Source: Bacteroidia bacterium (GTDB lineage Bacteria > Bacteroidota > Bacteroidia > AKYH767-A > OLB10). Taken from it: a stretch of DNA of 64,000 bases. The stretch covers positions 1,537-65,536 of the forward strand of contig DAOQTX010000002.1 in assembly GCA_035340715.1 (NCBI GenBank), in the 5' to 3' direction. The notes beneath the pieces were generated by a model. That model saw nothing but the letters and a program-made list of their open reading frames with translations, was not told where the DNA came from and ran no database searches. The translations under genes and the position numbers were made by a program. Each line of letters starts with the position of its first letter. Positions within the stretch are counted from its first letter, which is position 1. Positions 3,601-50,972 of this stretch are shown one piece after another.

Positions 3601-6600
3601 ATGAAAATCTATAAATGGTTATTCACTCTTTTATTGGTAAGCAACCATATTTCAACTAACGCACAAAGCCTATCTTTTCAACAGAAGAGTGATCATCAGA
3701 TTTTTGTGACACTAGATGATGTCAAGAACGAGCTGCATTGTTCTCAAACGGTTCGTTATACCAATAATTCATCAGACACATTAAAAGAGTTGTATTTTCA
3801 TATATGGCCTAATGCCTATTCCAATAGAGAGACTGCACTAGCGCAGCAAATGGTGCTCAGCAATAACTTAGATCTTTTTTTTGCAAAAGAAAGTGAAAAG
3901 GGACGCATGAAGAACTTTTCTGTTTTACAAAACGAATCAAAACTAACAGTGGTACTGGATGAATACGATATCGATATATGTAAAATTATCCTTCAAGAAC
4001 CAGTTGCTCCGGCAAGCTCAATAGATCTAGCTATGCGTTTTGATGTTGTAATTCCATCTGCTAAGTTCTCCCGTCTAGGACGAATTAATCAAGCCTATTA
4101 CATCACGCAATGGTATCCAAAGCCGGCTGTTTATGATTCATTAGGTTGGCACCAGATGCCATACCTTAATCAAGGTGAATTTTTTAGTGAATTTGGAGAC
4201 TACGAAGTACATATTACTGTTCCAGCAAATTATGTGGTAGCCGCTACAGGAGAATTGCAGAACAGTGCAGAACTAGATTGGCTAAAAAGTAAGAGCGAAT
4301 CGTATATCTTGAATGAAAGCAACGATTTAAAATTTCCTCCATCTGATTCAATTACAAAAACACTCATCTATAAACAAAGTAATATTCATGATTTTGCATG
4401 GTTTGCCGATAAGCGTTTTAATGTTTTGCACGACACGCTTCAGATTCCGGGTGAAGAAAGGATCATTGATGTATATGCTTATTTTACAGATAAATCAGCC
4501 AAGCATTGGGTGAAAGCCACTCATTATTTAAAGCGCTCCATACTTTTTTATTCCGAAAAACTTGGTAGTTATCCTTATAATGTAGTCTCAGCGGTAGATG
4601 GAACAATATCGGCAGGAGGAGGAATGGAATATCCTACGATAACCATACTCAGTAAAGTAGAAAATGATCTCGATCTTGAAACAGTTATCGTACACGAAGT
4701 TGGACACAATTGGTTATATGGAATATTAGCTTCCAATGAAAGAGATTACCCCTGGATGGATGAAGGAATCAACTCTTATTACGAAATTCGTTACCTAAAA
4801 ACATATCTGTCTGATCAAGATCGTCAACTCAATATGAACCGATTAAATCGATTGCTTGGTATTGATAATCTAGATTACTCCGGCCTTACTTCTTTATTAG
4901 TAAATATCAGTGAACGCAAAAGAGTCAATCAAAAAGTATCTTTAAAGTCGACCGAATATTCTTCGTTTAACTATGGTTTGATGATATATGGAAGAGTGCC
5001 AATGCTGTTCAATGCTATTGAAAGCCAATTCGGCACTGCACTGATGGACAGTTGCATGAGAATTTATTTCAACGAATGGAAATTTAGACATCCTTACCCA
5101 GGTCATTTAAAACAAATTTTGGAAACGGCAGGGAAAAAAGATGTCTCATGGTTATTTGATGATGCTTTCGATATGGAAAGAGGAATTGAATATAAGATTT
5201 ATGATGTTGCCACATATAGAGGAGAAAGAAATGAAAAAACGCAAAATGCCACACATTCTATTTTGGTGGGAAGCAAAGGCTTAGTGGCTGCTCCTTTTGA
5301 GATTACTGCTTATAAGGGAAAAAATCTGAAATACAGTTCAGCTTTTGACGGGATTTATGGAGGTGAAGTAGTGCATGTTGAATGTCCGGGATGTGACAAG
5401 TTTGTGATTAATGAACGCAAAATTTTCCCGGAACTCTATTATAATAACAATACGAAACGACTCAATGGGTTGTTTAGAGGAGTAGAGCCGTTAAAAATTG
5501 CTTTCCTTCCTCAAGTGGAAAGAGCTGATCGAACTCAACTGTTTATTTTGCCTTTAGCCGCTTGGAACAATACCGATAAATGGATGACCGGATTAAGTAT
5601 TTATAATATTTTTCTACCAGAGAAAAAATTTGAATTTGCATTTACTCCTTTATATAGTTTTAGAACCGAGGAGCTAAATGGTTTTGCTAATTTTCACCTG
5701 AATCTCTATCCTTCTTCTGGTTCTAGTAGGAGAATCCAATTAGGCGTTAAAGGACAAAAGTTTAGTTATCAAATTCGCGAGTATCAGAAAGACAGTCTAT
5801 CAACACAACGAGATTTCTTGTCTTATCAAGTGTTTGCTCCTTATCTTGAAGTAGATTTGTACAATAAAGATCCTCGTTCTGAAACTAAGAAGAAAGTGCG
5901 CTATCAATATTCTAATGTATCGAATGATTTCGAGGATTATCTTATTGTAAAAGATGGAGTTCCTCATATATCAGAAAAAAAGGAGGTCTATCATAACATA
6001 GATGTTGCTATTTCCAATAGAAGAAAACTGGATCCATTTTCAATTGGCTTTGGTTTAGAATTTCATAGTGAATATTTTAAAACATATTTTGAAGCGAAAT
6101 ACAAAATCACTTACAATAAACTAGGAAAGGGTATAAGCGCAAGATGGTTTGGTTCGATTTACGATAGTGACAACGATCAGTATGGAAATTATTTTTCTTT
6201 AAGTGGAAAACAAGCCAATAGTGATTATCAATATTCTAATCTATACTTCGATCGGAGCAATGCTGATTTTTGGAATCGACAGTTTCAAGAAAACGAGGGA
6301 GGTTTTAAAACCTATGTGCCAACAGCCGTTACAGAGCAAAAGGGCTTTTGGATGAGTGCTCTGAATATAGAGATAGAATTTCCGGGAGCATTACCAATTG
6401 TGGCATTTGCCGATATTGGAACCTATAACAATGCAGATAAAGTATTTGAGAAAGATATTTTTACTGATGCCGGCATCGCTTTAAAGCTGGGATCAATTTT
6501 TCAAGTATATTTTCCTTTCATGGTGAGTCAGAATCTTGATGATTATTACGATTTGAACGATATTGAATTCTCTGATCGAATTCGCTTTCAAATAAACTTA

Positions 6601-36430: not shown

Positions 36431-36447
36431 TTTCTTTCAATCTTTAG

Positions 36448-36519
36448 TAGCCCGTAGGGGAATCGAACCCCTGTTTCCTCCGTGAAAGGGAGATGTCCTA
36501 ACCCCTAGACGAACGGGCC
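36448..36519 (-). tRNA. tRNA-Glu (anticodon TTC)
   Basis: Folds manually into a cloverleaf. Acceptor GGCCCGT/ACGGGCT, D-loop containing GG, anticodon loop CTTTCAC, T-loop TTCGATT. Confidence 0.85.
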
Positions 36520-36580: not shown

Positions 36581-37264
36581 CTATTCGGGTTTATTTTGTT
36601 CGTTTTGGAACTTAAAGCCTAATCTTTTGCCAGTACTAATACTTGAACTCAAGCTATTGGCGTCCAATTCTTGCATAGATACACGGTAAACTTGCTCAAT
36701 AGGAGGTACAAATAGATCTTCTTGTAAACAGCCGATGATAACCGTTTCTAATAGATTGCAAATTACATCTTCCGTTAAAATCGAATTGGCAAAGTCATTA
36801 TACAAAAATCCAAGTTGTCCCTTTCCTTCTATGAAAAAGTGATTTTCTGCATTGATAAAGATTCGACCAACTAAAATTCCAATATCGTTGGTGCGCTGAT
36901 ATTTGAATGAGTCGTTTAAAAAGTTATAGATTGAGATCATTCCGCAGTGAGCTCTCAAAGGGTTTTCAGCAACGTAACTGGTCTTCCATAAGCTGTGGGA
37001 AGATTCGAAGGTAAATACATTTGTGTGGTGTACGAATACCAATAAATCGTCTGAGATGGTAAGGTTTACTTCAAACTCACTATCAGATTCAACTTTTAAA
37101 GGAATTCTTGGGTCAATTTTCTCCAGTTTCTTTTTTAATTCATCATGCATCAACTTCAATTTATTATGGATCAAATTAAAATTTGAACCAGTTTGTTCAA
37201 TTATTTGAAGATGCATGGGCCCTCTAATTTTTAATAGTTTAAAAACATTATCAAATTTCTCCAT
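36581..37264 (-). CDS. hypothetical protein (227 aa), translationally coupled to proS
   Basis: Start lies 3 nt after the proS stop. No motif I can recognise. Confidence 0.4.
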   Translation of the reverse strand: MEKFDNVFKLLKIRGPMHLQIIEQTGSNFNLIHNKLKLMHDELKKKLEKIDPRIPLKVESDSEFEVNLTISDDLLVFVHHTNVFTFESSHSLWKTSYVAENPLRAHCGMISIYNFLNDSFKYQRTNDIGILVGRIFINAENHFFIEGKGQLGFLYNDFANSILTEDVICNLLETVIIGCLQEDLFVPPIEQVYRVSMQELDANSLSSSISTGKRLGFKFQNEQNKPE

Positions 37265-38742: not shown

Positions 38743-38847
38743 AGGATATCTTTGTTTTATTCTTGGTACAGTAATTGAAATATGAATTGTGCGACAAAAG
38801 TCTTAAACAAAATTTACTTAAGCAATTAGTCGTTAAACCAAAGTAAT

Positions 38848-40509
38848 ATGAATACGTCAAACATTAAAACCAGCAAGAACATGAAAGCAAAAGCAATTTT
38901 AATTATCGCTTCCATGTTGGGGATTTACAGTTGTACATCCACTTCATACACCTCATCATCTCGAAACATGGACGATGTTTACTACAGTGAAAATCAATCA
39001 GAGCCTATCTTCATGGGCAACTCATCTTCGTCCGAAGATAATAGTTCAAGTGGAGAAATTACAAGTGAGTATGAATCAATTTCATCATCTCAGTCGAATG
39101 AAGGCAGTGATGATAATCGTTTTTCATATGATGAACCAAGTGAACCGAGTCAGGAATATTCAACTGATCCATCCAATAGTGAAAGATATAGAGATGAAAG
39201 TGGTAATACCTATGTGACCAACAATTACTATGGAGACTATTACGATTATGAGTATAGTTCTCGTTTAAGACGATTCTATCGCCCGTCCTCATATGGATAT
39301 TATCATAGTTATTATACTAACAGTTATTATTATACCTACCATCCTAATCATTGGGGATTGAGTATTTATTTAGGTTATAATTTTTGGTATCCACCAGTTT
39401 CGGTTTCTTTTGGATGGGGTAGTCCGGGATATTATGGCTCAAGTTGGTATGGATATAATCCTTATGGATGGTCAAGTCCAATTTATCCTTCGTATTATTT
39501 CGGCTATGGAAGTCCTTACGGATATTATGGAAGTAGTTACTACAATGGATATTATGCGGGTTATTGGAATGGTTATTACCAAGGATATTATAATTCCGTA
39601 TATGGTCCTTACGGTTACCCACATATCAACCCATACTATTGCAATACTTATGATGGCTCACTTGGATATTATTATGGTCCACGAAGTGGTGGTAGTGGTG
39701 AGAACAACAACCCTGTGCAAGCTTCAGGACCTAGAACGATTCAAAATAGTCTTTACCAGAACATGGTATATAATAATGATGGACCAAAAACTCCTACATT
39801 TGAAAGCGATGTAAAAGGTCCTGGAAAAACTCCGGTTCAAAGTGTTTCTCCTGTAAAGGGATCACCCAATGATGTTTCTCCAAGCATTGGATCCGGTCAT
39901 ACCGATGTTGCCCCGGTTAAAGGAAATAGTAGTGTGTCTCCTGTTAAAGGAAATACCGATGTCGCTCCAGTAAAAGGTAATAGTGAAACAAATCCTGTTA
40001 AAGGAAATAGTCATAGTGAGACAGTTAGCCCTGTTAAAGATCCTAGGACTATTAGTCAGCCAGGGAATAATTCTTCAGAAACAGCTCCAACCAAAAATAA
40101 CCCTATTAAAACGGAGCCTGCTCCAAAGCCAAGGCCTTATCAGTCTCCTTCATATGAGCAGCCAAAGAATAATCAACCTGGTGTGGATTCTCCTCGTGAC
40201 AATAATAATGTTACACCAAGAAGTCCAAACGTTGCTCCTTCAAAATCACCTCGACCAAGAAGTAGTTACGATTCACCTAGAAACTACGGAAATTCTACAA
40301 AAGGAAATAGTTGGAACTCGAATGATGTGAAGAGTAGTCAACCCAAGAGTAATTCACCTCGACCTTCAATTCAATCAGGTGGTTCGGGAATTAAAAGTAC
40401 TCCAAGAAATAATAACTCCAGTTCTGGTGTTAGTTCTAGTCCTCGCAACTCAAACTCGGGGAGTAATAGTCCAAGTAGTGGCGGATCGAAAAGGACCCCT
40501 AGAAATTAA
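38848..40509 (+). CDS. secreted low-complexity protein with an acidic segment, a Tyr/Gly/Ser-rich segment and tandem PVKGN repeats
   Basis: Possible lipoprotein signal if it starts at the Met at 38881 (MKAKAILIIASMLGIYSC). Extreme compositional bias. Several long alternative-frame ORFs in the same region are treated as artefacts. Confidence 0.55.
   Translation: MNTSNIKTSKNMKAKAILIIASMLGIYSCTSTSYTSSSRNMDDVYYSENQSEPIFMGNSSSSEDNSSSGEITSEYESISSSQSNEGSDDNRFSYDEPSEPSQEYSTDPSNSERYRDESGNTYVTNNYYGDYYDYEYSSRLRRFYRPSSYGYYHSYYTNSYYYTYHPNHWGLSIYLGYNFWYPPVSVSFGWGSPGYYGSSWYGYNPYGWSSPIYPSYYFGYGSPYGYYGSSYYNGYYAGYWNGYYQGYYNSVYGPYGYPHINPYYCNTYDGSLGYYYGPRSGGSGENNNPVQASGPRTIQNSLYQNMVYNNDGPKTPTFESDVKGPGKTPVQSVSPVKGSPNDVSPSIGSGHTDVAPVKGNSSVSPVKGNTDVAPVKGNSETNPVKGNSHSETVSPVKDPRTISQPGNNSSETAPTKNNPIKTEPAPKPRPYQSPSYEQPKNNQPGVDSPRDNNNVTPRSPNVAPSKSPRPRSSYDSPRNYGNSTKGNSWNSNDVKSSQPKSNSPRPSIQSGGSGIKSTPRNNNSSSGVSSSPRNSNSGSNSPSSGGSKRTPRN
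39846..40044 (+). repeat. 27-nt tandem repeat inside the CDS, encoding x-x-[SA]-PVKG-[NSD]
   Basis: About six copies. The core CCTGTTAAAGGAAATA recurs with small variation. Confidence 0.7.
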
Positions 40510-40527
40510 CAATTAATTCTGATTATT

Positions 40528-42015
40528 ATGAGACATTATATATCAGGAATGCTGTTTACAACAGCATTCCTTTTCATTCCTTTTTTTATTTCTGCACAAA
40601 ATCAAATAGATGCATTACGATATAGCCGAATGCAATTTGGATCAACAGCACGTAGTCTTGCCACAGGAGGAGCATTTTCTGCACTAGGAGCTGATTTGTC
40701 TGTTTTGTCAACCAACCCTGGTGGTTTAGGTTTGTATAGAAACGGAGATATAAATTTTACTCCTGCATTTTATATTAGAAGCGTTGATAGTAAATATCTT
40801 GATAAGAACTTAAGTGATAGTAAGGTGCAATTTGGATTTTACAATCTTGGAATCGTTGCTGTATCACAAAATGGATCATCTTCTCCTTGGAAAAGACACG
40901 TTATTTCTTTTGGATACAATAAGTTAGCTAGTTTTAATACCAATTCATATTTTGAAGGATTCAACCAACAGAATTCTTTACTAACCAATTTCGTTGAACA
41001 ATCGCAAGGACTGAGTGCTTCTACATTGAGCAACAACAGCGCTTTTGATCTAAATCTTGCTTTTCAAACTTGTGCAATAGATACTTCAAGTGATGGAAAT
41101 TATTATTCGGGATTTCCAAATGCACATGTAATGCAAAGCCGATTATTTGAAAGCAGAGGTTCGATAGGAGAGTGGTCGTTTGGTTATGGTGGTACGCTTG
41201 AAGAAAAATTATATCTCGGAGCATCACTTAATTTTCCTACCATTAGATATGATGAAGTTTCTTTATATGAGGAATCCGATATACAGCATGATTCTTCTTT
41301 AGTTTGTGGAGCCGATTTGGATGCCATTACGTATAGAAAAGATCTTTTGACCAAAGGGAATGGAATAAATTTAAAGTTTGGAATGATTGTACGACCTTCC
41401 GATTATGTGCGATTGGGTATTGCCATTCATACTCCAACTTATTTTGTAATGAAAGATTATTATTCATCGAGATTTACCAGCAACTTTACAGATGGCAGTA
41501 GCTATAGCGAAGATTCTCCTGCTGGTTTTTATCAGTACAACTTAACCACGCCATTTAGAATGCTAGCAAGTGTAGCATTTATGTTTGGTCAAGCCGGATT
41601 TCTGACGGGTGAATATGAGTATGTTGACTATGCCAATGCCAAATTAAAAGCTCCTGATTATTCATTTAGTCAAGAGAATTCAGCTATTAAAGGACAGTAT
41701 ACCTCATCACATAATGTACGATTGGGAGCTGAGGCTAAGCTCGACAACATCAGTTTGCGATTTGGCGCTTCTTATGCACAATCACCTTATGAAGGAGACT
41801 CACAATCTATTTCTGAATCGAATAGTAGAAATACTATTGGCTTTAGTGGTGGCTTTGGTTACAAATATGAAAATTGGTATTTGGATGTAGGATATGCATT
41901 CAACTCGTCTAAAGAGTATTATCAGCCATATACAGTCAATAATGGTCTTAGTCCGGTTAGTTTAGAGGAAATAAAGGAACATCGCTTACTGATCACTACA
42001 GGATGGCGATTCTAG
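40528..42015 (+). CDS. outer-membrane beta-barrel protein, FadL/PorV-like family
   Basis: Signal peptide. N-terminal ALRYSRMQFGSTARSLATGGAFSALGADLSVLSTNPGGL signature and terminal Phe. Confidence 0.55.
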   Translation: MRHYISGMLFTTAFLFIPFFISAQNQIDALRYSRMQFGSTARSLATGGAFSALGADLSVLSTNPGGLGLYRNGDINFTPAFYIRSVDSKYLDKNLSDSKVQFGFYNLGIVAVSQNGSSSPWKRHVISFGYNKLASFNTNSYFEGFNQQNSLLTNFVEQSQGLSASTLSNNSAFDLNLAFQTCAIDTSSDGNYYSGFPNAHVMQSRLFESRGSIGEWSFGYGGTLEEKLYLGASLNFPTIRYDEVSLYEESDIQHDSSLVCGADLDAITYRKDLLTKGNGINLKFGMIVRPSDYVRLGIAIHTPTYFVMKDYYSSRFTSNFTDGSSYSEDSPAGFYQYNLTTPFRMLASVAFMFGQAGFLTGEYEYVDYANAKLKAPDYSFSQENSAIKGQYTSSHNVRLGAEAKLDNISLRFGASYAQSPYEGDSQSISESNSRNTIGFSGGFGYKYENWYLDVGYAFNSSKEYYQPYTVNNGLSPVSLEEIKEHRLLITTGWRF

Positions 42016-43016
42016 TTTGAGTAGTGTTTAATAAACGCTTTAAGATTATTCCCAAACGTATCATTCATTTCTTTTGAAAAATCTGTTTGCTTGATGCGAT
42101 ATCGTTTGAAATCAACAAAAAAACTATTGTTGGGCAAATGACTACGATAATACGTGTACTTAGTATTGTTTTTTACTTTCAGTGTATCCAAGGTTTGAAA
42201 AGTTTGACTAATGATCGAGTACTTTCTTTGAATTGAAGGAGTATGATTTCGAGTATATAGTGAATCTAATAATTGATATGCTTTTAGAAAATGCAACTCA
42301 TATAATTGCTGATCATGAAGCTCATTCGAATAGAATTGGTATTGTGAAGATTCTTTAGAGAATTTATATTCTAAAAATAACCGTGCTCCTTGCTCACCTA
42401 TAAAGGTTGCCAGATTCTCATTGAAATCGATATCGTTTTTAATAAAAATGGTGCTATGCGTTAGTTCATGAATAATTAGTTCTGCTAACTTTCCTTCACT
42501 TTTGTTAAACATAGAACTTAAAATGGGATCTTTAAAAAATCCCAATGTGCTCCAAGCTGATGCCGGACTTAAATCAGTGTCAAAACCCTGTCGTATTAGT
42601 TCAAGTTGTTCTATAGTTCCTTCACCTTTATTGAAAAAACCTTTGTATGTACTCCGTCCGAATATGGGAAACTTCCATTCATGCTCCTCAAATGATAGAG
42701 CTTTGCAAGCACTAAGTACCCACAGAGGATAGTTATTTTGTTGATCATAAAAGGTAGAATAGTTATTCGTTTTTTTCAATCCCAGGTTCTCTTCAGCGAA
42801 ACTTTTTACCTCTTGAATAAAATTTATCTTTTGTTTGATGCTATCCGAAATCAGCGAGTCATTTAGAATAGTTTCAATTGGTATTGAATTCTGAATAATG
42901 TTCAGCTGCCCTTTTAATTGTTTAATACCATACGAAATGTGATGACGATTGACAGTAAACCAAACTCCGGTAATTATCACTAAGACGATTAGGGAGTAGA
43001 GAAGAACTTTCTTCAA
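42012..43016 (-). CDS. putative zinc aminopeptidase (HExxH), membrane-anchored
   Basis: N-terminal transmembrane segment and HELTHSTIF motif. Resembles the predicted-aminopeptidase family. Confidence 0.5.
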   Translation of the reverse strand: MKKVLLYSLIVLVIITGVWFTVNRHHISYGIKQLKGQLNIIQNSIPIETILNDSLISDSIKQKINFIQEVKSFAEENLGLKKTNNYSTFYDQQNNYPLWVLSACKALSFEEHEWKFPIFGRSTYKGFFNKGEGTIEQLELIRQGFDTDLSPASAWSTLGFFKDPILSSMFNKSEGKLAELIIHELTHSTIFIKNDIDFNENLATFIGEQGARLFLEYKFSKESSQYQFYSNELHDQQLYELHFLKAYQLLDSLYTRNHTPSIQRKYSIISQTFQTLDTLKVKNNTKYTYYRSHLPNNSFFVDFKRYRIKQTDFSKEMNDTFGNNLKAFIKHYSN

Positions 43017-43028
43017 GTGTGCTTGTAA

Positions 43029-44816
43029 TTAAAAACAATAGGAATTCGCTTCAAGCATGTGTCTGGCGATTCTGCGTCTTGCTTCTTTCGAGTTATAATT
43101 CTGAACTTTTGTGAAGCGCTTTAGTCCCATTTGCAACATTCTTAATTCATCTCCTTCGGCCATTGCTCCAATGGCTGCTTTACCGGCTAAGTTTATTCTA
43201 TCGGAGGCGGATTGAACATATACATTGAGCATGTCATGATATACCGATAACTTTTTTTCATCAATACTTCCGCTGAGTTTATTGACTCTCAAATAAATTG
43301 ATTCTGCAACGAAAATGTCGATCAGCATATCGGTTATGTTCATTATTATTTCTTGCTCTGTTACAAGCTTCATCATATACTTCTGTGCTGCAAAGCCTGC
43401 AACCATCAGAGCCGCTTTCTTAAAAGCGTTTATATTATTTTCCAACAGCAACATTGGATCATCCGATCCATTACCAAACTCTGGAATAGACATAAGTTCT
43501 TTTTGAACATTTGAAGCCGCTGTCATCAAATCCAATTCTCCTTTCATGGCTCTTTTAACCAACATATCCACTGTCAATAGTCGATTGATCTCATTGGTGC
43601 CTTCAAAAATTCTATTGATTCTGGAGTCACGATAAGACCTATCCATTGGATAATCGGTTGAGTATCCATAGCCACCGTATATTTGTACACCTTCGTCCAC
43701 TACGAAATCCAGAACTTCACTTCCAAATACTTTTATCATTGCACATTCCGCAGCATATTCTTCAGCGGCCGACAAAAGTGATTTTTCGTAACTCATTCCC
43801 TCAGACTGTTTAAGTTTTTCATCCTCATCAATCATGTGGGCTAAACGATAAAGTGTAGTTTCCAGCGCAAAGGTTCTTATTGCTTGTTCGGCTAATTTGT
43901 GCTTTATAGCTCCAAATTTTCCAAGCGACATATTAAACTGTTCTCTTGTATTTGCATATTCAACCGAAAGTCCGGCACTTCTTTTGCATCCACCTAAAGC
44001 AGCCGCAGCTAATTTTAAGCGACCAATATTTAATATATTAAATGCAATCAGGTGCCCCTTACCAATTTCGCCAAGAACGTTTTCAACCGGTACTTTACAA
44101 TCGTTAAAAAATACCTGACGGGTAGAAGAACCTTTAATTCCCATTTTATGTTCTTCATTGCCTAATGAAATACCGGGATATTCTTTCTCAATAATAAATC
44201 CTGTAAATTTCTCTCCATCAATTTTAGCGAATACAATAAAAACATCTGCAAAACCTGCATTGGTAATCCACATTTTCTGTCCATTAATGATATAATGTTT
44301 CTTATCAGCGCTGAGCACAGCTTTAGTTTTTGCTGCTAAAGCATCTGATCCAGATCCAGGTTCGGTTAAACAATAAGAAGCTTTTAATTCTCCGCTGGAT
44401 AGTTTAGGCAGATACTTCTTTTTTTGATCTTCATTTCCGAAATATAAAATTGGTAATGTACCAATACCAGTATGAGCAGCCATAGCCACTGCAAATGAAT
44501 GTCCAGCTCCCAGAACTTCTGTAATTAATGTTCCGGTAATAAAATCTTTTCCTAAGCCTTCATAACTTTCAGGAATACTAAGACTAAGCAAGCCCAACTG
44601 TCCGGCTTTATCAATCAAAGAAGCCATTAAACCTTCTTCCATATTGTCTATTCGATCGAGTATTGGAAAGACTTCTGTATTAAGAAATTCCTTACCCATA
44701 TCAGCCATCATTTTGTGTTCTTCTGAAAATTGTTCGGGAATAAAAGTGCTCATTTCAGAAGTGGGTGTGACTAGAAATGCACCACCACGCATTGTTTTTG
44801 TTTCTACCTTATTCAT
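43029..44816 (-). CDS. long-form acyl-CoA dehydrogenase
   Basis: 595 aa with the ACAD N-terminal, middle and C-terminal domains. Confidence 0.8.
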   Translation of the reverse strand: MNKVETKTMRGGAFLVTPTSEMSTFIPEQFSEEHKMMADMGKEFLNTEVFPILDRIDNMEEGLMASLIDKAGQLGLLSLSIPESYEGLGKDFITGTLITEVLGAGHSFAVAMAAHTGIGTLPILYFGNEDQKKKYLPKLSSGELKASYCLTEPGSGSDALAAKTKAVLSADKKHYIINGQKMWITNAGFADVFIVFAKIDGEKFTGFIIEKEYPGISLGNEEHKMGIKGSSTRQVFFNDCKVPVENVLGEIGKGHLIAFNILNIGRLKLAAAALGGCKRSAGLSVEYANTREQFNMSLGKFGAIKHKLAEQAIRTFALETTLYRLAHMIDEDEKLKQSEGMSYEKSLLSAAEEYAAECAMIKVFGSEVLDFVVDEGVQIYGGYGYSTDYPMDRSYRDSRINRIFEGTNEINRLLTVDMLVKRAMKGELDLMTAASNVQKELMSIPEFGNGSDDPMLLLENNINAFKKAALMVAGFAAQKYMMKLVTEQEIIMNITDMLIDIFVAESIYLRVNKLSGSIDEKKLSVYHDMLNVYVQSASDRINLAGKAAIGAMAEGDELRMLQMGLKRFTKVQNYNSKEARRRIARHMLEANSYCF

Positions 44817-44880
44817 AATACATTAAATGATTATTATAATACGAAAAAAAAGGCAATTAGTTTTAATATTCGGATATTAA

Positions 44881-46059
44881 TCAGAACATTTCGAAAACCC
44901 CAGCTGCACCTTGTCCGGTACCTACACACATGGTTACCATGCCGTATTTTAAATTTCTTCTTGTAAGCTCGTTGAAAAGCTGAACACTAAGTTTGGCTCC
45001 CGAGCATCCTAGCGGATGGCCTAGTGCAATTGCACCGCCATTAACATTTACCATGTCAGGGTTTAAACCTGTTTCTCTAATAACAGCTATGGACTGCGAT
45101 GCGAAAGCCTCATTTAATTCTACCAACTGAATATCACTGAGTTTAAGATTCGCTTTTTTCAATGCTTTAGGAATTGCTTCAACCGGGCCAATGCCCATAA
45201 TACGTGGACTAACTCCTGCTACCCCATAAGACAACATTTTTGCCAAGGGTTTATTTTTTAATTTTTTGGCAAAGGTATCTGAAACCAATAGCACAAATGC
45301 AGCTCCATCACTTGTTTGAGAAGAATTTCCTGCCGTAATACTACCTTGAGCGGAAAATACCGGCTTTAATGTATTTAGTTTTTCAACGCTGGTATCGGCT
45401 CTAGGGCCTTCATCAATACTAAATTGTATTTCTTTCTCACTGCGTTTATTTTTTTCGTTTAGAAATACTTCCTTGAAAGTATATGGAACAATTTGCGAAG
45501 TAAAATATCCTTGATCAATTGCTTTTATTGCTTTTTGATGAGAATGGTAAGAAAATTCATCTTGGTCGCTGCGACTAACCTTATATTCATTCGCTACGGC
45601 CTCTGCAGTAAGTCCCATTCCCCAATAGTAATCGGGGTTTTCTAATGCGACTTTCGGATTGGGTGTAATTCTCCAACCCCCAAATGGAATAGGGGACATA
45701 CATTCAACTCCACCTGCAATAATACAATCTGCTTGACCTGAAACAATTTTTGAATGCGCAATAGCTATGGTTTCAAGGCCTGATGCACAATAGCGGTTTA
45801 CGGTCATGCCGGGTACTTTTTCGGTATTCAAGCCCATCAACGATATCATTCTGCCAATATTGAGACCTTGCTCTGCCTCAGGAGTAGCATTACCAACGAT
45901 GACATCATCTATATCATTGGGATCTAATTCGGGTACACTTTGAAGCAGATGTTTAATAACAGACACCGCTAAATCATCAGGTCGAACATTCTTCAAAGTT
46001 CCTCGTGGGGCTTTACCCACTGCACTTCTAAATCCGGCTATGATATAGGCTTCCTTCAA
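44881..46059 (-). CDS. fadA: acetyl-CoA C-acyltransferase (thiolase)
   Basis: Active-site Cys in NRYCASGL, and the C-terminal GHPLGCSGA and CVGTGQGAA motifs. Confidence 0.85.
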
Positions 46060-46072
46060 TAGTAAAAATCAA

Positions 46073-46750
46073 TTAGTTATTTTCTTCTGTTTTCTGATCG
46101 TCTCCACCTTCATTATTTTGCTCATCTGTTGGTGCAACATTTAATTTTGGTGCTGTGCCATTAGGATTTTTCTGAGCTTCTAAAGCTGCTTTTCTGGCCG
46201 CTTCATCTGCTTTCTTTTTATCATCTGCGGCTTTTGCTGCCTCAGCGGCTTTCACGTCAACCCCATCTTTATAGATTACACTATTGGTTAGCGCACCTCT
46301 ACGGTTGTATGCGCGCCATTCTCCATCTTTTTGACCATATTTGTAATCTCCTTCAAGAGAAACCTCTCCATCATCAAAATACTTAGTCCATCGCCCATTC
46401 TTTTTTCCTCCTAAATACTCTCCTTCTATCCTCAAACTTCCCGAGTAGTAGTATCTACGATATACACCTTCTTTTACACCACTGAAATATTCAGTCTCTT
46501 CCATGATTTTTGTGTAGGGATAATAGCGCTTACTAATTCCATGTTTTTTATTGTTCAAATACTCAATTTCTTGAGTGATCTCACACATAGAATTGAAGTA
46601 CTTCCAAACTCCTTGCTTTTGACCAAATTCATCAGTTTTGTTTCTATGCTTTTCTTTTCGAGGAGCATATTTGGGTTTGTCTTCGGTCTGACTGAATGAA
46701 GCAAAGGGCAGTAGAGCCAGAAAAAGAATCAGGATTTTACGAGCAAGCAT
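46073..46750 (-). CDS. secreted MORN-repeat (YwqK-like) protein with a Lys/Ala/Glu-rich tail
   Basis: Signal peptide. Repeated Y-x-x-G-x-x-x-G-x-W units. Located between fadB and fadA. Confidence 0.5.
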   Translation of the reverse strand: MLARKILILFLALLPFASFSQTEDKPKYAPRKEKHRNKTDEFGQKQGVWKYFNSMCEITQEIEYLNNKKHGISKRYYPYTKIMEETEYFSGVKEGVYRRYYYSGSLRIEGEYLGGKKNGRWTKYFDDGEVSLEGDYKYGQKDGEWRAYNRRGALTNSVIYKDGVDVKAAEAAKAADDKKKADEAARKAALEAQKNPNGTAPKLNVAPTDEQNNEGGDDQKTEENN

Positions 46751-46793
46751 CTGACAGGTGTTTTTTATTTATGGGTTAAAAATAATACAAAAA

Positions 46794-49196
46794 TTAATTT
46801 CTGAGTGGCTTTCCGCTTGTAAGAATACTTTGTATCCGTTCGAGCGTTTTTTTCTCGGTGCACAAAGATAAAAATGCTTTTCTTTCCAAATCAAGCAGAT
46901 ACTGTTCATTTACATGTGTTCCCGAAGGTAAATCTCCTCCACAAAGTGCATAACCCAATTTCTGACTTATTTTTAGATCATATTCGGAAATATAGTTACC
47001 GGCCAACATGGAATTTGCTCCCGCATAAACCATTCCAAGACCGGTGTTGCCCATTATTTTTATCGGTTTTGGCGAAGGTTTTACATAACCAGATTCTGAT
47101 AATGCGATTACTGATTCTTTGGCTCTGAATATTTGTAAAGATCGATTGATTTCGATTTGATCGATACCTTTTCTCAAATAACCCAAGTTGAATGCCTCCA
47201 ATCCGGATGTACTGACTTTTGCCATAGCGATGGTAAGGAATCGGGACTTTAACTGATTCAATTCAATATCACCCTCGCTAATCTCTTCAGACAATCTTAA
47301 AGCAAATTCTTTAGTTCCTCCACCGGCAGGAATTAATCCAACTCCCACTTCCACCAATCCCATATAAGTTTCGGCTGCAGCAACAACTTTCGCAGAATGC
47401 ATACTGAATTCACAAGCACCTCCTAAAGAAAGGCTATGAGGGGCAAGCACAACAGGAACTGAGGAGTATTTTATCTTCATTGAAGCATTTTGAAAAGATC
47501 TAACAGCGAAATCGATTTCATCAAATTCCTGTTCAACAGCCATCATAAACACAAGACCAAGGTTTGCTCCGGCTGAAAAGTTCATTCCTTCATTGGCGAT
47601 GACCATACCTCGGTGATTTTTTTCAGCAATATCGATCGATTGGTTAATAGCGTTTAGAATTTCACCTCCAACGGTATTCATTTTGGTATGGAACTCAAGA
47701 TTTACAACATCGTTACCTATATCGATTAAGCTTGCACCTGAATTATTCCAAACCACATTGTTTTGTTTCAATATGGATAATGAAATTTTAGATTCTCTTC
47801 CCGGAATGCGCTCATAAGACTTAGTTGCAGTAGCGAAGTACGCTAATTGGTTTTCAGTTAATTGATAAAAAGCATTGGATTTATTCTCCTGTATGTTGCC
47901 AATCCATTTAGCTTCAGTTAAAGAATGTTCTTTTATTAATGATCTTCCATTGTCAAATCCTACACAATCCCAAAGTTCAAAAGGTCCCAATTGCCAACCA
48001 AAGCCACTTTTCATGGCATCATCAATCTGATAAAAATCATCACAAATTTCTCCGACACGATGAGCGGAGTAAGCAAATAGATGGGCAAGAATATGTCTAT
48101 AAAACTTTCCTACATCATCTTTGGTTTGTACTAAAAATCGAATTCGATCTTTTAAGTCGTCTATAGCTTTTGCCGATTCAATAGTTGCGATTTTTTTTCG
48201 TTTTTGCTCAGTATATTCTAACGTTGTAAGATCTAAAGAGAGTATGGCTTTCTTTCCAGATTCATTTTTGGTTTTAAAATAAAAGCCTTTACCACTCTTA
48301 TCGCCTAACTGATTGTTCTGCTTCATTTGCTGAACATAAGAAGGTAGATTAAACTCTTCTCTTCGTTCATCGTTTATGGCGTGTTGATGAAGTCCTTCTG
48401 CAACAAAGACTAAAGTGTCTAGACCAACTACATCACATGTTCTGAAGGTTGCTGACTTTGGTCTTCCAAACACAGTTCCGGTAAGTATATCAACATCTTC
48501 TATCGTTAAACTTGAATTGCTCATAAAATGAAATAAATTCACAATTGAGTAAACACCAATGCGGTTGGCTATAAAAGCTGGTGAGTCTTTGCAGATAACG
48601 CAATCTTTTCCGAGATATCTAGTGCCAAAATCTACCAAAAAATTGATCAACTCTTTTTCAGTTTCATTTCCGGGTATGATTTCTAATAAGGGTAAGTAAC
48701 GAACCGGATTAAAGAAGTGAGTTCCACAAAAGTGTTTTTTAAAATCATCGCTTCGGTTTTGCGTTAGAACTGAAATTGGAATGCCTGAAGTATTGCTGCT
48801 GATGATGGTTCCGGTTTTTCTGTATTGCTCTACCTTTTCATACAATGATTGTTTAATGGCAGGTTGTTCAATTATAGCCTCAATAATCCAATCGCATTCT
48901 GCTATTTTAGATAAATGGTCTTCTAGATTTCCACAGGTGATTAAATTTCTCATCTCCGGTAGATAAACAGAAGAAGGTTTTGATTTTAAGGTTTGCTCGA
49001 GAGCTTGGTTAACTATTCGATTGCGTACTCTTGGGTGGTCGAGTGTAAGGCCTGATTGTTCTTCTTGAGTGCTTAATTTGTTGGGAACAATATCCAACAA
49101 CAATACTTGTATTCCGGTATTTGCAAAGTGGCAAGCAATTCTTGATCCCATAACACCGGATCCTAAAACAGCTACCTTTTTTATAGAGCGATTCAT
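46794..49196 (-). CDS. fused 3-hydroxyacyl-CoA dehydrogenase / enoyl-CoA hydratase
   Basis: N-terminal Rossmann motif VLGSGVMGSRIA and a C-terminal crotonase fold. 800 aa. Confidence 0.8.
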   Translation of the reverse strand: MNRSIKKVAVLGSGVMGSRIACHFANTGIQVLLLDIVPNKLSTQEEQSGLTLDHPRVRNRIVNQALEQTLKSKPSSVYLPEMRNLITCGNLEDHLSKIAECDWIIEAIIEQPAIKQSLYEKVEQYRKTGTIISSNTSGIPISVLTQNRSDDFKKHFCGTHFFNPVRYLPLLEIIPGNETEKELINFLVDFGTRYLGKDCVICKDSPAFIANRIGVYSIVNLFHFMSNSSLTIEDVDILTGTVFGRPKSATFRTCDVVGLDTLVFVAEGLHQHAINDERREEFNLPSYVQQMKQNNQLGDKSGKGFYFKTKNESGKKAILSLDLTTLEYTEQKRKKIATIESAKAIDDLKDRIRFLVQTKDDVGKFYRHILAHLFAYSAHRVGEICDDFYQIDDAMKSGFGWQLGPFELWDCVGFDNGRSLIKEHSLTEAKWIGNIQENKSNAFYQLTENQLAYFATATKSYERIPGRESKISLSILKQNNVVWNNSGASLIDIGNDVVNLEFHTKMNTVGGEILNAINQSIDIAEKNHRGMVIANEGMNFSAGANLGLVFMMAVEQEFDEIDFAVRSFQNASMKIKYSSVPVVLAPHSLSLGGACEFSMHSAKVVAAAETYMGLVEVGVGLIPAGGGTKEFALRLSEEISEGDIELNQLKSRFLTIAMAKVSTSGLEAFNLGYLRKGIDQIEINRSLQIFRAKESVIALSESGYVKPSPKPIKIMGNTGLGMVYAGANSMLAGNYISEYDLKISQKLGYALCGGDLPSGTHVNEQYLLDLERKAFLSLCTEKKTLERIQSILTSGKPLRN

Positions 49197-49199
49197 AAA

Positions 49200-50972
49200 T
49201 TAATTTGAGTTCGAATATATTTTATTGATTAATGATTCGTTTGCTTTGAACAGATTTTTTCTCTTTAGTTTCAGTGTTGGAGTCAATTCGTTGTTGTCAA
49301 TAGTCCATTCACGATCGATCAATTCAAACTTTTTAATTTGCTCAACCTGGCTTAATGATTCATTTAAACGATTAATCTCGTTTCTGATAATGGATCTAAC
49401 TTCCTTGAGTTCGATCAATTCGTGTTGCGAAACCAAACTTATATTATTCGATTTACACCATTCAATCAGATAGGGGAAAGAAGGAACGACCAAAGCGGCT
49501 GTATATTTTTGGTTTTCCCCAATCACCATTATTTGTTCAATAAATGGCGACTCTTTCATTTTGTTTTCAATTACCTGTGGTGCAATATATTTTCCACCCG
49601 AATTCTTGAATATTTCTTTTTTGCGATCGGTGATTTTCAAATACTTTCCTTCTTCTAGAGTGCCTATATCACCCGTATGAAACCATCCATCCTTATCAAT
49701 GGCGCTCTCGGTAAGATCCGGTCTGTTGTAATATCCTTTCATTAAGTTTGGACCTTTGCTGAGTATTTCACCGTCCTCTGCTATCTTGACTTCAACATTT
49801 TTGATAACTGTACCTACTGTGCCAAATTTGGTATTGCCTTTGCCAAAATAATTGACAGATATTACAGGAGAGGTTTCTGTTAGTCCATATCCTTCCAAAA
49901 CCGGTAGCTGAGCAGCCCAAAAAACACGAGCCAATTTTACTTGCAATGCGGCTCCACCTGATACAATAACTTTGGTATTCCCTCCAAGTGCTTCACGCCA
50001 TTTGTTGAATATAATTTTATTCGCCAGTTTAAGCTGAAACTCATACCACCATCCATTTTTTCCATCGAGCTCGTAGCGTAGTCCAAGATTCAAAGCCCAA
50101 AAAAACAAACTTCTTTTTATACCTTTCAGTTCATTGCCTTTGTTTACAATTTTATCATATACTTTTTCCAAAAGCCGAGGGACACAGCTGAAAACATGAG
50201 GTTGTACTTCTTTAATATTATCCCCAATCTTTTCCATTGATTCGGCATAATAGATATCGACACCCAGATATAAATACAGATAGGTAAGCATTCTTTCAAA
50301 AGAATGGCAAAGGGGAAGAAAACTTAATGCTTTATGTTCATGATTTACTGGAACGCGATCAGCACTATCCAAAACATTACTCACAATGTTTGAGTGCATC
50401 AGCATAACTCCTTTTGGATTGCCTGTAGTACCACTGGTGTATAAAATGGTAGCTACATCATGCGATTTTATGTTTTGATTTCTATTCCTTAGTTCCTCGA
50501 CATGCGTGTTGTTTTTTCCGTTTTGAATAAAACTATCAAAGGATATCGTATTTGGGATAGCGTTAAAGGTGATGATGTATTCTAAAGAAGGACACTGTTC
50601 TTTAATACTTATTATTTTGTTGTAGATCTCTTCATCGGATATCAAAACCGCCTTTATGGATGCATCATTGATAATAAATGCATATTCTGAAGCTGTTATG
50701 GTAGGATATATTGGAATATGAATTAACCCTGCTTCCATGATACCCATGTCAGCAAAATTCCATTCTGGACGGTTATTGGATATAGATCCTACCTTATCTC
50801 CGGGTTTAAATCCTAACTCTATAAATGCATAACTAACATAGTTGGCATTTTCGACCAATTGCTTTGTACTAAAACTCTTCCAAGTATTATCTGTTTTACA
50901 ACTCAAACATTTTTCCGTTGGATGCGTTTGTTGTTGCCAGTACATGATATCGAATAATCGGCTTATCTTCAT
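49200..50972 (-). CDS. fadD: long-chain-fatty-acid--CoA ligase
   Basis: AMP-binding motif YTSGTTGNPKG. Confidence 0.85.
   Translation of the reverse strand: MKISRLFDIMYWQQQTHPTEKCLSCKTDNTWKSFSTKQLVENANYVSYAFIELGFKPGDKVGSISNNRPEWNFADMGIMEAGLIHIPIYPTITASEYAFIINDASIKAVLISDEEIYNKIISIKEQCPSLEYIITFNAIPNTISFDSFIQNGKNNTHVEELRNRNQNIKSHDVATILYTSGTTGNPKGVMLMHSNIVSNVLDSADRVPVNHEHKALSFLPLCHSFERMLTYLYLYLGVDIYYAESMEKIGDNIKEVQPHVFSCVPRLLEKVYDKIVNKGNELKGIKRSLFFWALNLGLRYELDGKNGWWYEFQLKLANKIIFNKWREALGGNTKVIVSGGAALQVKLARVFWAAQLPVLEGYGLTETSPVISVNYFGKGNTKFGTVGTVIKNVEVKIAEDGEILSKGPNLMKGYYNRPDLTESAIDKDGWFHTGDIGTLEEGKYLKITDRKKEIFKNSGGKYIAPQVIENKMKESPFIEQIMVIGENQKYTAALVVPSFPYLIEWCKSNNISLVSQHELIELKEVRSIIRNEINRLNESLSQVEQIKKFELIDREWTIDNNELTPTLKLKRKNLFKANESLINKIYSNSN

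Follow-up and report, generated by a model that had tools for sequence, protein, structure and literature searches.

Analysis of a 64,000-nucleotide stretch from a Bacteroidia bacterium (contig DAOQTX010000002.1; this whole stretch is called the window below) revealed that a gene for a tyrosine-rich lipoprotein and a gene for a FadL-family outer-membrane β-barrel, situated side by side on the plus strand, make up an outer-membrane module of two genes that is found repeatedly among the related Bacteroidota loci studied. The lipoprotein belongs to a family undescribed in Pfam, NCBIfam and the PDB, and the barrel represents a distinct new clade of the FadL superfamily, being neither a BamG orthologue nor PorV. 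The pair and its divergent neighbour are laid out as follows:

38848..40509, plus strand: lipoprotein gene, 553 residues as the open reading frame (ORF) is listed, with a likely true start at ATG 38881 (M12)
40528..42015, plus strand: FadL-family outer-membrane β-barrel gene, 495 residues
37267..38742, minus strand: proS (prolyl-tRNA synthetase), divergent neighbour of the lipoprotein gene, with precomputed Pfam matches tRNA-synt_2b, HGTP_anticodon and ProRS-C_1
38743..38847, no strand: intergenic stretch that separates proS from the divergently oriented lipoprotein gene, with a presumed promoter role

The two ORFs of the pair share a frame and are separated by 18 nt, and the positions, lengths (553 and 495 residues) and 18-bp gap given in an earlier note on this DNA, which had been made from the sequence without database searches, all proved exact when compared with the ORF list. 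The genes are probably co-transcribed, and the intergenic region 38743..38847 is presumed to hold the promoter; sigma-70-like sites were not enriched in it, in a scan that was not of the Bacteroidota promoter type. Database searches returned hundreds of homologues for both proteins, and the exact 553-residue protein is encoded on 7 metagenome contigs. Because both proteins have hundreds of homologues and the pairing is found in nearly every related locus, the ORF pair is far beyond what chance would produce.

The pairing was followed in a set of 80 related loci, drawn from at least 568 relatives found by a genome scan, of which 72 were informative in that they hold enough DNA upstream of the barrel gene. 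A hidden Markov model (HMM) of the aromatic domain of the lipoprotein matched the same-strand ORF directly upstream of the barrel gene in 66 of these 72 loci. Five further loci encode an upstream lipoprotein with a DDxYY motif whose HMM score stayed sub-threshold, bringing the total to approximately 71/72, and the conservation of the gene pair in relatives, which the earlier note had asked to be examined, was thereby confirmed. The sole informative locus with another upstream neighbor (L024) carries at 4758-5849 a gene for a 363-residue secreted protein with a weak match to DUF3300 (E 1e-4), below the cut-off. Two patterns that would speak against a pair, namely a lipoprotein ORF that is absent or out of frame in close relatives and a barrel that always occurs alone, were looked for in the 72 loci and neither was found. 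Also, proS is located divergently and immediately upstream in 68 of the 80 loci, with 67-75% identity in tblastn comparisons. When proS distances were controlled for, pairwise distances of the barrel and of the aromatic domain were still correlated (partial r 0.41, permutation p ~5e-4), and this signal for co-evolution of the two is weak but consistent.

The lipoprotein combines segments of very different composition, and its overall content amounts to 11.6% Tyr, 19.2% Ser, 10.5% Asn, 10.1% Pro and 9.6% Gly. Its parts, all encoded on the plus strand, are:

38881..38934, plus strand: signal peptide with lipobox, up to the lipidated Cys29, whose codon is 38932-38934 (...ASMLGIYS-C29)
38971..38988, plus strand: residues 42-47, the DDVYYS motif, with which the N-terminal tether is proposed to dock
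38989..39183, plus strand: residues 48-112, an acidic block rich in Ser, Glu and Asp, with a net charge of -15
39184..39684, plus strand: aromatic domain, residues 113-279 (167 residues), with a GNTYxTNNYY hairpin and the motifs YSSRLRRF, YYTNSYWY and YYNSYD..YYYGPR
39685..40506, plus strand: residues 280-553, a disordered basic tail rich in Pro, Ser, Asn, Lys and Arg, with a net charge of +15 and 14% Pro
39899..39982, plus strand: 27-nt tandem repeat with PVKGN units, within the variable tail, for which Tandem Repeats Finder reports 3.1 copies of a 27-nt period with 70% matches and a score of 84

In an alignment of independent database homologues (A2) residue M12 is nearly invariant, and because of this alignment ATG 38881 is more likely to be the true start of the lipoprotein. 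The lipoprotein signal that the earlier note had considered probable is well supported, as the window protein reads ...LGIYS-C29 and a hydrophobic stretch followed by Cys is kept in 64 of 68 homologues, judged by reading the sequences and not by a signal peptidase II (SPII) predictor. Downstream of the Cys the DDVYYS motif follows, in which A2 shows D43 without exception and D42 and Y45 almost without exception, at a distance of 8-15 residues between Cys and DD (mode 11-12) among the 64 homologues. The acidic, aromatic and basic layout is a family-wide property: in the 68 homologues the N-terminal block is net negative in 57, and the tail, with a length of ~295 residues and a median charge of +23, is net positive in 67. 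The sequence of this tail drifts among homologues, while its composition and charge are kept. The three-part anatomy of the lipoprotein was therefore found as the earlier note had described it, and so was the Phe with which the barrel ends.

The description of the Tyr-rich block as low complexity did not survive comparison, since two alignments demonstrated that it is conserved position by position instead of drifting. Aromatic residues (Y/W/F) account for 36.5% of the domain in the window protein and for a family median of 36%; R142, Y151, P166 and G242 are invariant in A2 and ~25 further positions are nearly so, giving the pattern YSSRLRRF..P...YY..YYTN.YWY..P..G.SIY.GY..W.P ... YYNSYD..YYYGPR. 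The conserved elements of the lipoprotein, as obtained both from an alignment of the upstream ORFs and from A2, are thus the lipobox Cys, DDVYYS, the GNTYxTNNYY hairpin and the aromatic domain. Also, the approximately six tandem 9-residue PVKGN repeats of the earlier note were partly recovered: a 27-nt repeat exists, but it amounts to just 3.1 copies, and among the spacings of the six PVK[G/D] motifs just three have the regular 9 residues while the others are 22 and 12 residues, so that a count of six is generous. It is the sole tandem repeat of the lipoprotein.

Modelling of the lipoprotein with AlphaFold2 from a 63-sequence alignment gave a predicted local distance difference test score (pLDDT) of 49 (~50 for the tail), with the exception of a confidently predicted hairpin at residues 112-124 (~87) and a short helix at 298-308. 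No match to Pfam or NCBIfam was obtained for the lipoprotein, nor any match to Pfam for 63 homologues; these searches returned no known peptidoglycan-binding domain in the lipoprotein or the homologues (Pfam) and no type IX secretion system (T9SS) C-terminal sorting domain in the lipoprotein (Pfam, NCBIfam) or in the 63 homologues (Pfam). When PDB sequences were searched with the lipoprotein profile, nothing beyond low-complexity noise came up, for example trypanosomatid S21 tails with E no better than 0.13. The surface-lipoprotein export signal of BamH-K consists of two or more acidic residues in the ~6 residues after the lipidated Cys (PMC12578637). Across 64 homologues of the lipoprotein, D/E was absent from +2..+7 in 59 and occurred once in 5, the conserved DD being located at +8 to +15, so that the 59 homologues lack the canonical Bacteroidota surface-export signal. 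O-glycosylation sequons were depleted and not enriched (0.32 observed versus 1.02 expected), which makes a mucin-like glycoprotein unlikely.

In four loci the lipobox Cys of the upstream protein is missing (L046, 4244-5875; L057, 4503-5960; L071, 261-1898; L079, 4723-5949). These proteins carry a signal of the signal-peptidase-I type (..AQ), with a DD motif (DDGIY or DDVYY) within a few residues. Because the Cys-less partners still carry the DD motif near the end of the signal, the DD-aromatic motif is suggested to matter more than the lipid.

For the barrel, the earlier note had announced an N-terminal signature G-x-A-R-x-x-A-x-G-G-A-F of FadL/PorV-like families. Such a signature is present, but it actually reads G-S-T-A-R-S-L-A-T-G-G-A-F and is one residue longer; the N-terminal region carries GSTARSLATGGAF and the C-terminus reads ...TTGWRF. 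Two N-terminal features are distinguished:

40528..40596, plus strand: barrel signal peptide, residues 1-23, with a presumed cleavage at ...ISA|Q24 and pLDDT <50 for residues 1-22
40597..40743, plus strand: N-terminal hatch, residues 24-72, comprising DALRYS, GxxARxxAxGGAF and N63-P64-G65 (40714-40722), the counterpart of the NPA motif of FadL

The first mature residue, Q24, is invariant in alignments A1 and A3. In the hatch, N63 and P64 are invariant among 40 homologues, and D28, A29, L30, R31 and S33 are nearly invariant. The third residue of the NPA motif is G in the window barrel and A in the consensus, and HMMER aligns this stretch to ...ENPATLGL of TbuX. An AlphaFold2 model built from the 40-sequence alignment A1 reached a pLDDT of 90.2 and a predicted TM-score (pTM) of 0.85. 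When this model was compared with the PDB using Foldseek, the top three matches were chains of BamG (9hiv_F, E 5e-18; 9n2d_B; 9hjm_F; down to E 3e-15), and FadL, TodX, CymD and TbuX came next with E 1e-12 to 8e-15 over ~510-540 aligned columns. These BamG and FadL-type matches all had a probability of 1.0, a TM-score (TMq) of 0.50-0.56 and 10-15% identity. The barrel is therefore confidently predicted to be a FadL-type β-barrel with an N-terminal hatch, and the FadL-like nature that had been proposed is borne out by the matches to FadL, TodX and BamG.

Sequence searches place the barrel at some distance from the described families. A profile built from 40 members of the family matched only TbuX among PDB sequences (E 9e-8), although E up to 10 was allowed, and no BamG chain was among the matches, even though the structural library contains 9hiv, 9n2d and 9hjm. 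The window barrel itself had no Pfam match at E up to 1, and Toluene_X (PF03349), one of the families that the earlier note had wanted searched, was accordingly negative, whereas 6 of 40 barrel homologues match it at E up to 0.01 and many relatives carry a precomputed PF03349 assignment; 7 of 40 match UPF0164. PorV, the other family named there, was found only sub-threshold, as NCBIfam PorV_fam (NF033709) matched residues 293-462 with 24.9 bits (E 1.3e-5) compared to a curated cut-off of 90 bits, and PorV2 scored 13.9 bits compared to a cut-off of 325. Together with a Foldseek match to the PorV chain 8gl6_F of E 2e-5 and TMq 0.33, these scores contradict a PorV-like identity. At E below 1e-30 the clade of the barrel comprises 3743 clusters at 50% identity, and its members are named 'hypothetical protein' or 'outer membrane protein transport protein' in the databases. 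A homologue search that started from Flavobacteriales and Bacteroidales barrels likewise reached proteins of metagenome-assembled genomes with these names and none of a named model organism.

The FadL, TodX and TbuX proteins (PF03349) are 14-stranded channels for hydrophobic molecules, with a lateral opening that arises from a kink in strand S3. The window barrel shares with them the fold, the hatch with the invariant N-P motif and the C-terminal Phe, and TbuX is its sole sequence relative in the PDB. It differs from them in being ~50-70 residues longer, in falling below the Pfam thresholds and in having a dedicated lipoprotein partner, which is not known to be needed by classical FadL, TodX or TbuX. 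BamG-BamH of the Bacteroidota β-barrel assembly machinery (BAM), which is widely conserved in the phylum, likewise consists of a barrel and a lipoprotein, and BamG, which is FadL-like, holds BamH in a clamp by its conserved, lipidated N-terminus (PMC12611786, PMC12578637). In contrast to the structural likeness, sequence similarity between BamG, known as Bt4367 and Fjoh_1412, and the window barrel is not detectable; and the surface lipoprotein BamH has a fold and carries acidic residues directly behind its Cys, whereas the window partner is disordered, rich in aromatic residues and devoid of acidic residues at that site. The T9SS shuttles PorV and PorQ and Treponema UPF0164 are distant members of the superfamily, seen as weak HMM matches below curated cut-offs; PorV is a poor structural match, and the window barrel has no T9SS context. 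Bacteroidota BamA possesses a flexible extracellular Tyr/Gly/Asn-rich loop, EL3, of unknown function (PMC12578637). This loop resembles the aromatic domain in composition and flexibility, but it is a loop of 38 residues and not a lipoprotein domain of 150 residues.

A likely counterpart of the pair occurs in Flavobacterium johnsoniae. In a study on TamL, Fjoh_4939 is a proline-tRNA ligase (proS), Fjoh_4941 is a FadL homologue, and for Fjoh_4940 the supplement gives the class SPII and the description 'periplasm-facing lipoprotein, function unknown' (PMC12045153). Depletion of TamL raised Fjoh_4940 and Fjoh_4941 with fold changes of 2.6 and 5.6, respectively, and Fjoh_4941 was lower in vesicles (PMC12045153). 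In the supplement of a BAM proteomics study Fjoh_4941 has a mass of 55 kDa and is classed as an outer-membrane protein (OMP), and it falls upon depletion of BamA and of BamG, as OMP clients do. Fjoh_4940/4941 thus agree with the window pair in their order beside proS and in their protein classes (SPII lipoprotein and 55-kDa FadL-like OMP), and they are known from proteomic behaviour alone. Peptides of Fjoh_4941 align at the homologous site of the barrel family; individually these short peptides were non-significant, and only the concatenated pair outperformed shuffles, with a score of 60 compared to a shuffle maximum of 46. From this evidence Fjoh_4940/4941, with the UniProt accessions A5FA28/A5FA29, are probable orthologues of the window pair. 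The TamL study was the sole paper found to mention them; in the view of its authors the neighbouring position of the two genes 'might indicate a functional link' (PMC12045153), and the pairing has thus been noticed once in passing and never analysed.

From the genes, families, fold, pairing, synteny and architecture described above we infer, with moderate confidence, that the module is a housekeeping outer-membrane barrel-lipoprotein complex with a FadL-type channel for hydrophobic molecules, the formation of a complex being more likely than any specific role, topology or substrate. The lipoprotein would be the dedicated outer-membrane partner of the barrel in a stable complex, and by analogy with BamH on BamG its lipidated N-terminal tether (Cys, 8-15 residues, DDVYYS) and its β-hairpin would dock onto the barrel. 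The barrel would act as a lateral-diffusion channel or as a binding site for hydrophobic or amphipathic molecules, and because the hatch and the N-P-(A/G) motif are kept, it most likely still handles hydrophobic molecules. The 36%-aromatic domain may act at the membrane interface or at the opening of the barrel, and the basic disordered tail of ~300 residues would extend into the periplasm, with the cell surface as a less likely destination. A role in the handling of outer-membrane lipids or hydrophobic solutes and in envelope homeostasis is likely, because of the rise of the counterpart upon TamL depletion and the housekeeping location of the genes.

Several observations weigh against this interpretation. 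The case for an interaction is made from conserved adjacency, a weak mirror-tree signal and analogy, and the putative channel role is drawn from the fold and the motif. The lipoprotein is predicted to be almost wholly disordered at a pLDDT of 49, so that no binding surface is visible, and the Cys-less homologues L046, L057, L071 and L079 indicate that lipidation is not essential to the family. In addition, the window barrel lies under every Pfam threshold, orthology of Fjoh_4940/4941 was deduced from synteny and short peptides and not from full sequences, and the adjacency to the β-oxidation genes described below, which might have hinted at fatty acids, is kept in 0/80 related loci.

Among the other interpretations, the earlier note had favored a surface-exported Tyr-rich protein with the barrel as its anchor or translocator, forming an adhesive, cross-linked or amyloid-like fibre or matrix. 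We consider this improbable. The Tyr/Gly/Asn/Ser-rich composition, the predicted disorder and the acidic block that follows the lipid anchor in 57/68 homologues would suit such a material, FadL-type barrels possess a lateral opening and BamG does hold a surface lipoprotein (PMC12611786), and the BamA loop is an instance of this composition on the cell surface (PMC12578637). The prion, adhesin, matrix or amyloid nature is nevertheless opposed by an aromatic domain conserved position by position and by the housekeeping neighbor proS, which is unlike what is seen for variable adhesins, by the lack of a canonical export signal (no D/E at +2..+7 in 59/64 homologues), by the classification of Fjoh_4940 as periplasm-facing (PMC12045153) and by the absence of a detectable T9SS C-terminal domain in Pfam and NCBIfam searches. 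Also, AlphaFold2 predicted no β-solenoid or amyloid-type repeat unit, and O-glycosylation sequons are depleted. Marginally less improbable is an envelope tether or spacer, in which the basic tail would bind peptidoglycan or reach the inner membrane, for cohesion or signalling, and the barrel would mainly serve as an anchor. A Pro-rich tail that stays positive in 67/68 homologues despite its drift fits this idea, as do the predicted periplasm-facing orientation of the lipoprotein, its abundance in membrane proteomes (~46 spectral counts, similar to BamG) and its induction when outer-membrane homeostasis is disturbed by TamL depletion. The argument is purely compositional, however; the Pfam searches returned no known peptidoglycan-binding domain, and a tether leaves the aromatic domain and the need for a FadL-type barrel with an intact hatch unexplained.

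The structural comparison raises the question whether the pair is an accessory unit of the Bacteroidota BAM of the BamG/BamH type that aids OMP or lipoprotein assembly. The three best structural matches of the barrel are BamG chains (E 5e-18 to 3e-15), a paralogous BamG2-BamH2 operon exists whose layout of barrel and lipoprotein genes resembles that of the pair (PMC12578637), the composition of the aromatic domain echoes EL3 of BamA, and Fjoh_4941 responds to BamA and BamG depletion in the manner of an OMP client. Against this, the family profile retrieves TbuX and no BamG chain from the PDB with E allowed up to 10, the barrel is 12-15% identical to BamG with TM-scores no better than those to FadL, and the partner is not BamH-like and has no folded domain. 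Ahead of G-x-x-A-R the barrel has, counted by eye, 14 residues, which would be ~3 more than the 11 of E. coli FadL, while the N-terminal extension with which BamG threads the lateral opening amounts to ~10-12. Moreover, the BAM complexes purified from F. johnsoniae, Bacteroides thetaiotaomicron and Porphyromonas gingivalis were not reported to contain either protein as a co-purifying subunit, and we regard a BAM-accessory unit as rather improbable. Much less credible still is a T9SS shuttle of the PorV/PorQ type with the lipoprotein as cargo or partner. It draws on the weak PorV_fam match (24.9 bits, E 1.3e-5) and on the shared N-terminal GGAF-type motif, but the score is far under the cut-off of 90, the PorV chain 8gl6_F (E 2e-5) reaches a TMq of 0.33 compared to 0.50-0.56 for FadL and BamG, the lipoprotein has no T9SS C-terminal domain and no T9SS genes are present in the conserved neighborhood. 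A more speculative proposal, which we hold to be unlikely, is an unrecognised outer-membrane machine, conserved widely among Bacteroidota, in which the disordered aromatic lipoprotein would be threaded through the lateral gate of the barrel or clamped there. It would serve hydrophobic clients (lipids, acyl chains of lipopolysaccharide or of lipoproteins, unfolded OMPs) as a 'sticky' holdase or as a conduit, and would be mechanistically related to the Tyr/Gly/Asn-rich loop of BamA; such a machine could belong to the path by which lipoproteins or lipids are flipped to the cell surface.

Near the junction of the two genes, a further element may bear on the expression of the barrel-lipoprotein complex that we favor:

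40545..40571, plus strand: stem-loop with a perfect 12-bp stem, a 3-nt loop and a T-rich run, a terminator-like match just inside the barrel ORF, after the start codon

The intercistronic fold had a z-score of -3.6 in the window when compared with shuffles; among 74 related loci z was < -2 in 23%, with a median z of -0.4. The stem-loop is a possible intercistronic attenuator or stabiliser and could tune the ratio of lipoprotein to barrel. In F. johnsoniae, spectral counts were ~46 for the lipoprotein Fjoh_4940 compared to 19 for the barrel Fjoh_4941.

Downstream of the barrel, at a distance of 1-9 kb, a complete β-oxidation set occupies 43029-50972 on the minus strand:

43029-44816, minus strand: acyl-CoA dehydrogenase (fadE homologue)
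44881-46059, minus strand: thiolase (fadA homologue)
46794-49196, minus strand: FadB-like 3-hydroxyacyl-CoA dehydrogenase/enoyl-CoA hydratase
49200-50972, minus strand: AMP-binding acyl-CoA synthetase-like gene (fadD homologue)

An acyl-CoA dehydrogenase or thiolase gene within 6 kb was found in none of the 80 related loci. The adjacency therefore looks lineage-specific, and a fatty-acid uptake operon is ruled out as a general explanation of the pair. No universal downstream gene was found among 70 loci. Within 0-4.5 kb downstream of the barrel, 36 of these 70 loci encode a ~283-residue coiled-coil/zinc-ribbon-like protein, 33 a NIF3-like protein, 26 a convergent 499-residue secreted protein and 22 an LpxK-like kinase, names that were given by eye from sequence motifs. 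The window is without those recurrent genes and has an aminopeptidase gene (PF10023) at 42012-43016 instead.

On the other side of the pair, just downstream of proS, a gene at 36581-37264 on the minus strand encodes a 227-residue protein that gave a match neither in Pfam nor in NCBIfam, shows no evident signal peptide and occupies the same position in 25/80 loci with 35-49% identity. Between this gene and rpsT lies a tRNA-Glu(UUC) gene (36447-36519, minus strand), the sole Rfam/ARAGORN match in the 64-kb window. In the cases of L001, L023, L061 and L069, a Bacteroidota-type locus occurs in metagenome-assembled genomes labelled Bifidobacterium breve, Comamonadaceae, Hyphomicrobiales and Bifidobacteriaceae, respectively; in L001, L061 and L069 proS is ~70% identical to that of the window. 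These odd labels are probably binning or labelling errors.

Among the Bacteroidota are dominant symbionts of the gut, pathogens of the oral cavity and polymer degraders of the environment, and the BAM structures of 2025 revealed that their outer membrane is built in another way than that of E. coli. The pair is a property of the phylum and not of the window alone, and its constant place beside proS and the rise upon TamL depletion point to a basic envelope function. If the proposed complex is true, it would be the second case after BamG-BamH of a FadL-like barrel that serves as a dock for a lipoprotein. The likely counterpart is expressed in the model organism F. johnsoniae, where Fjoh_4940 and Fjoh_4941 are directly testable, and defining the function of the pair would fill a gap in the envelope biology of Bacteroidota.

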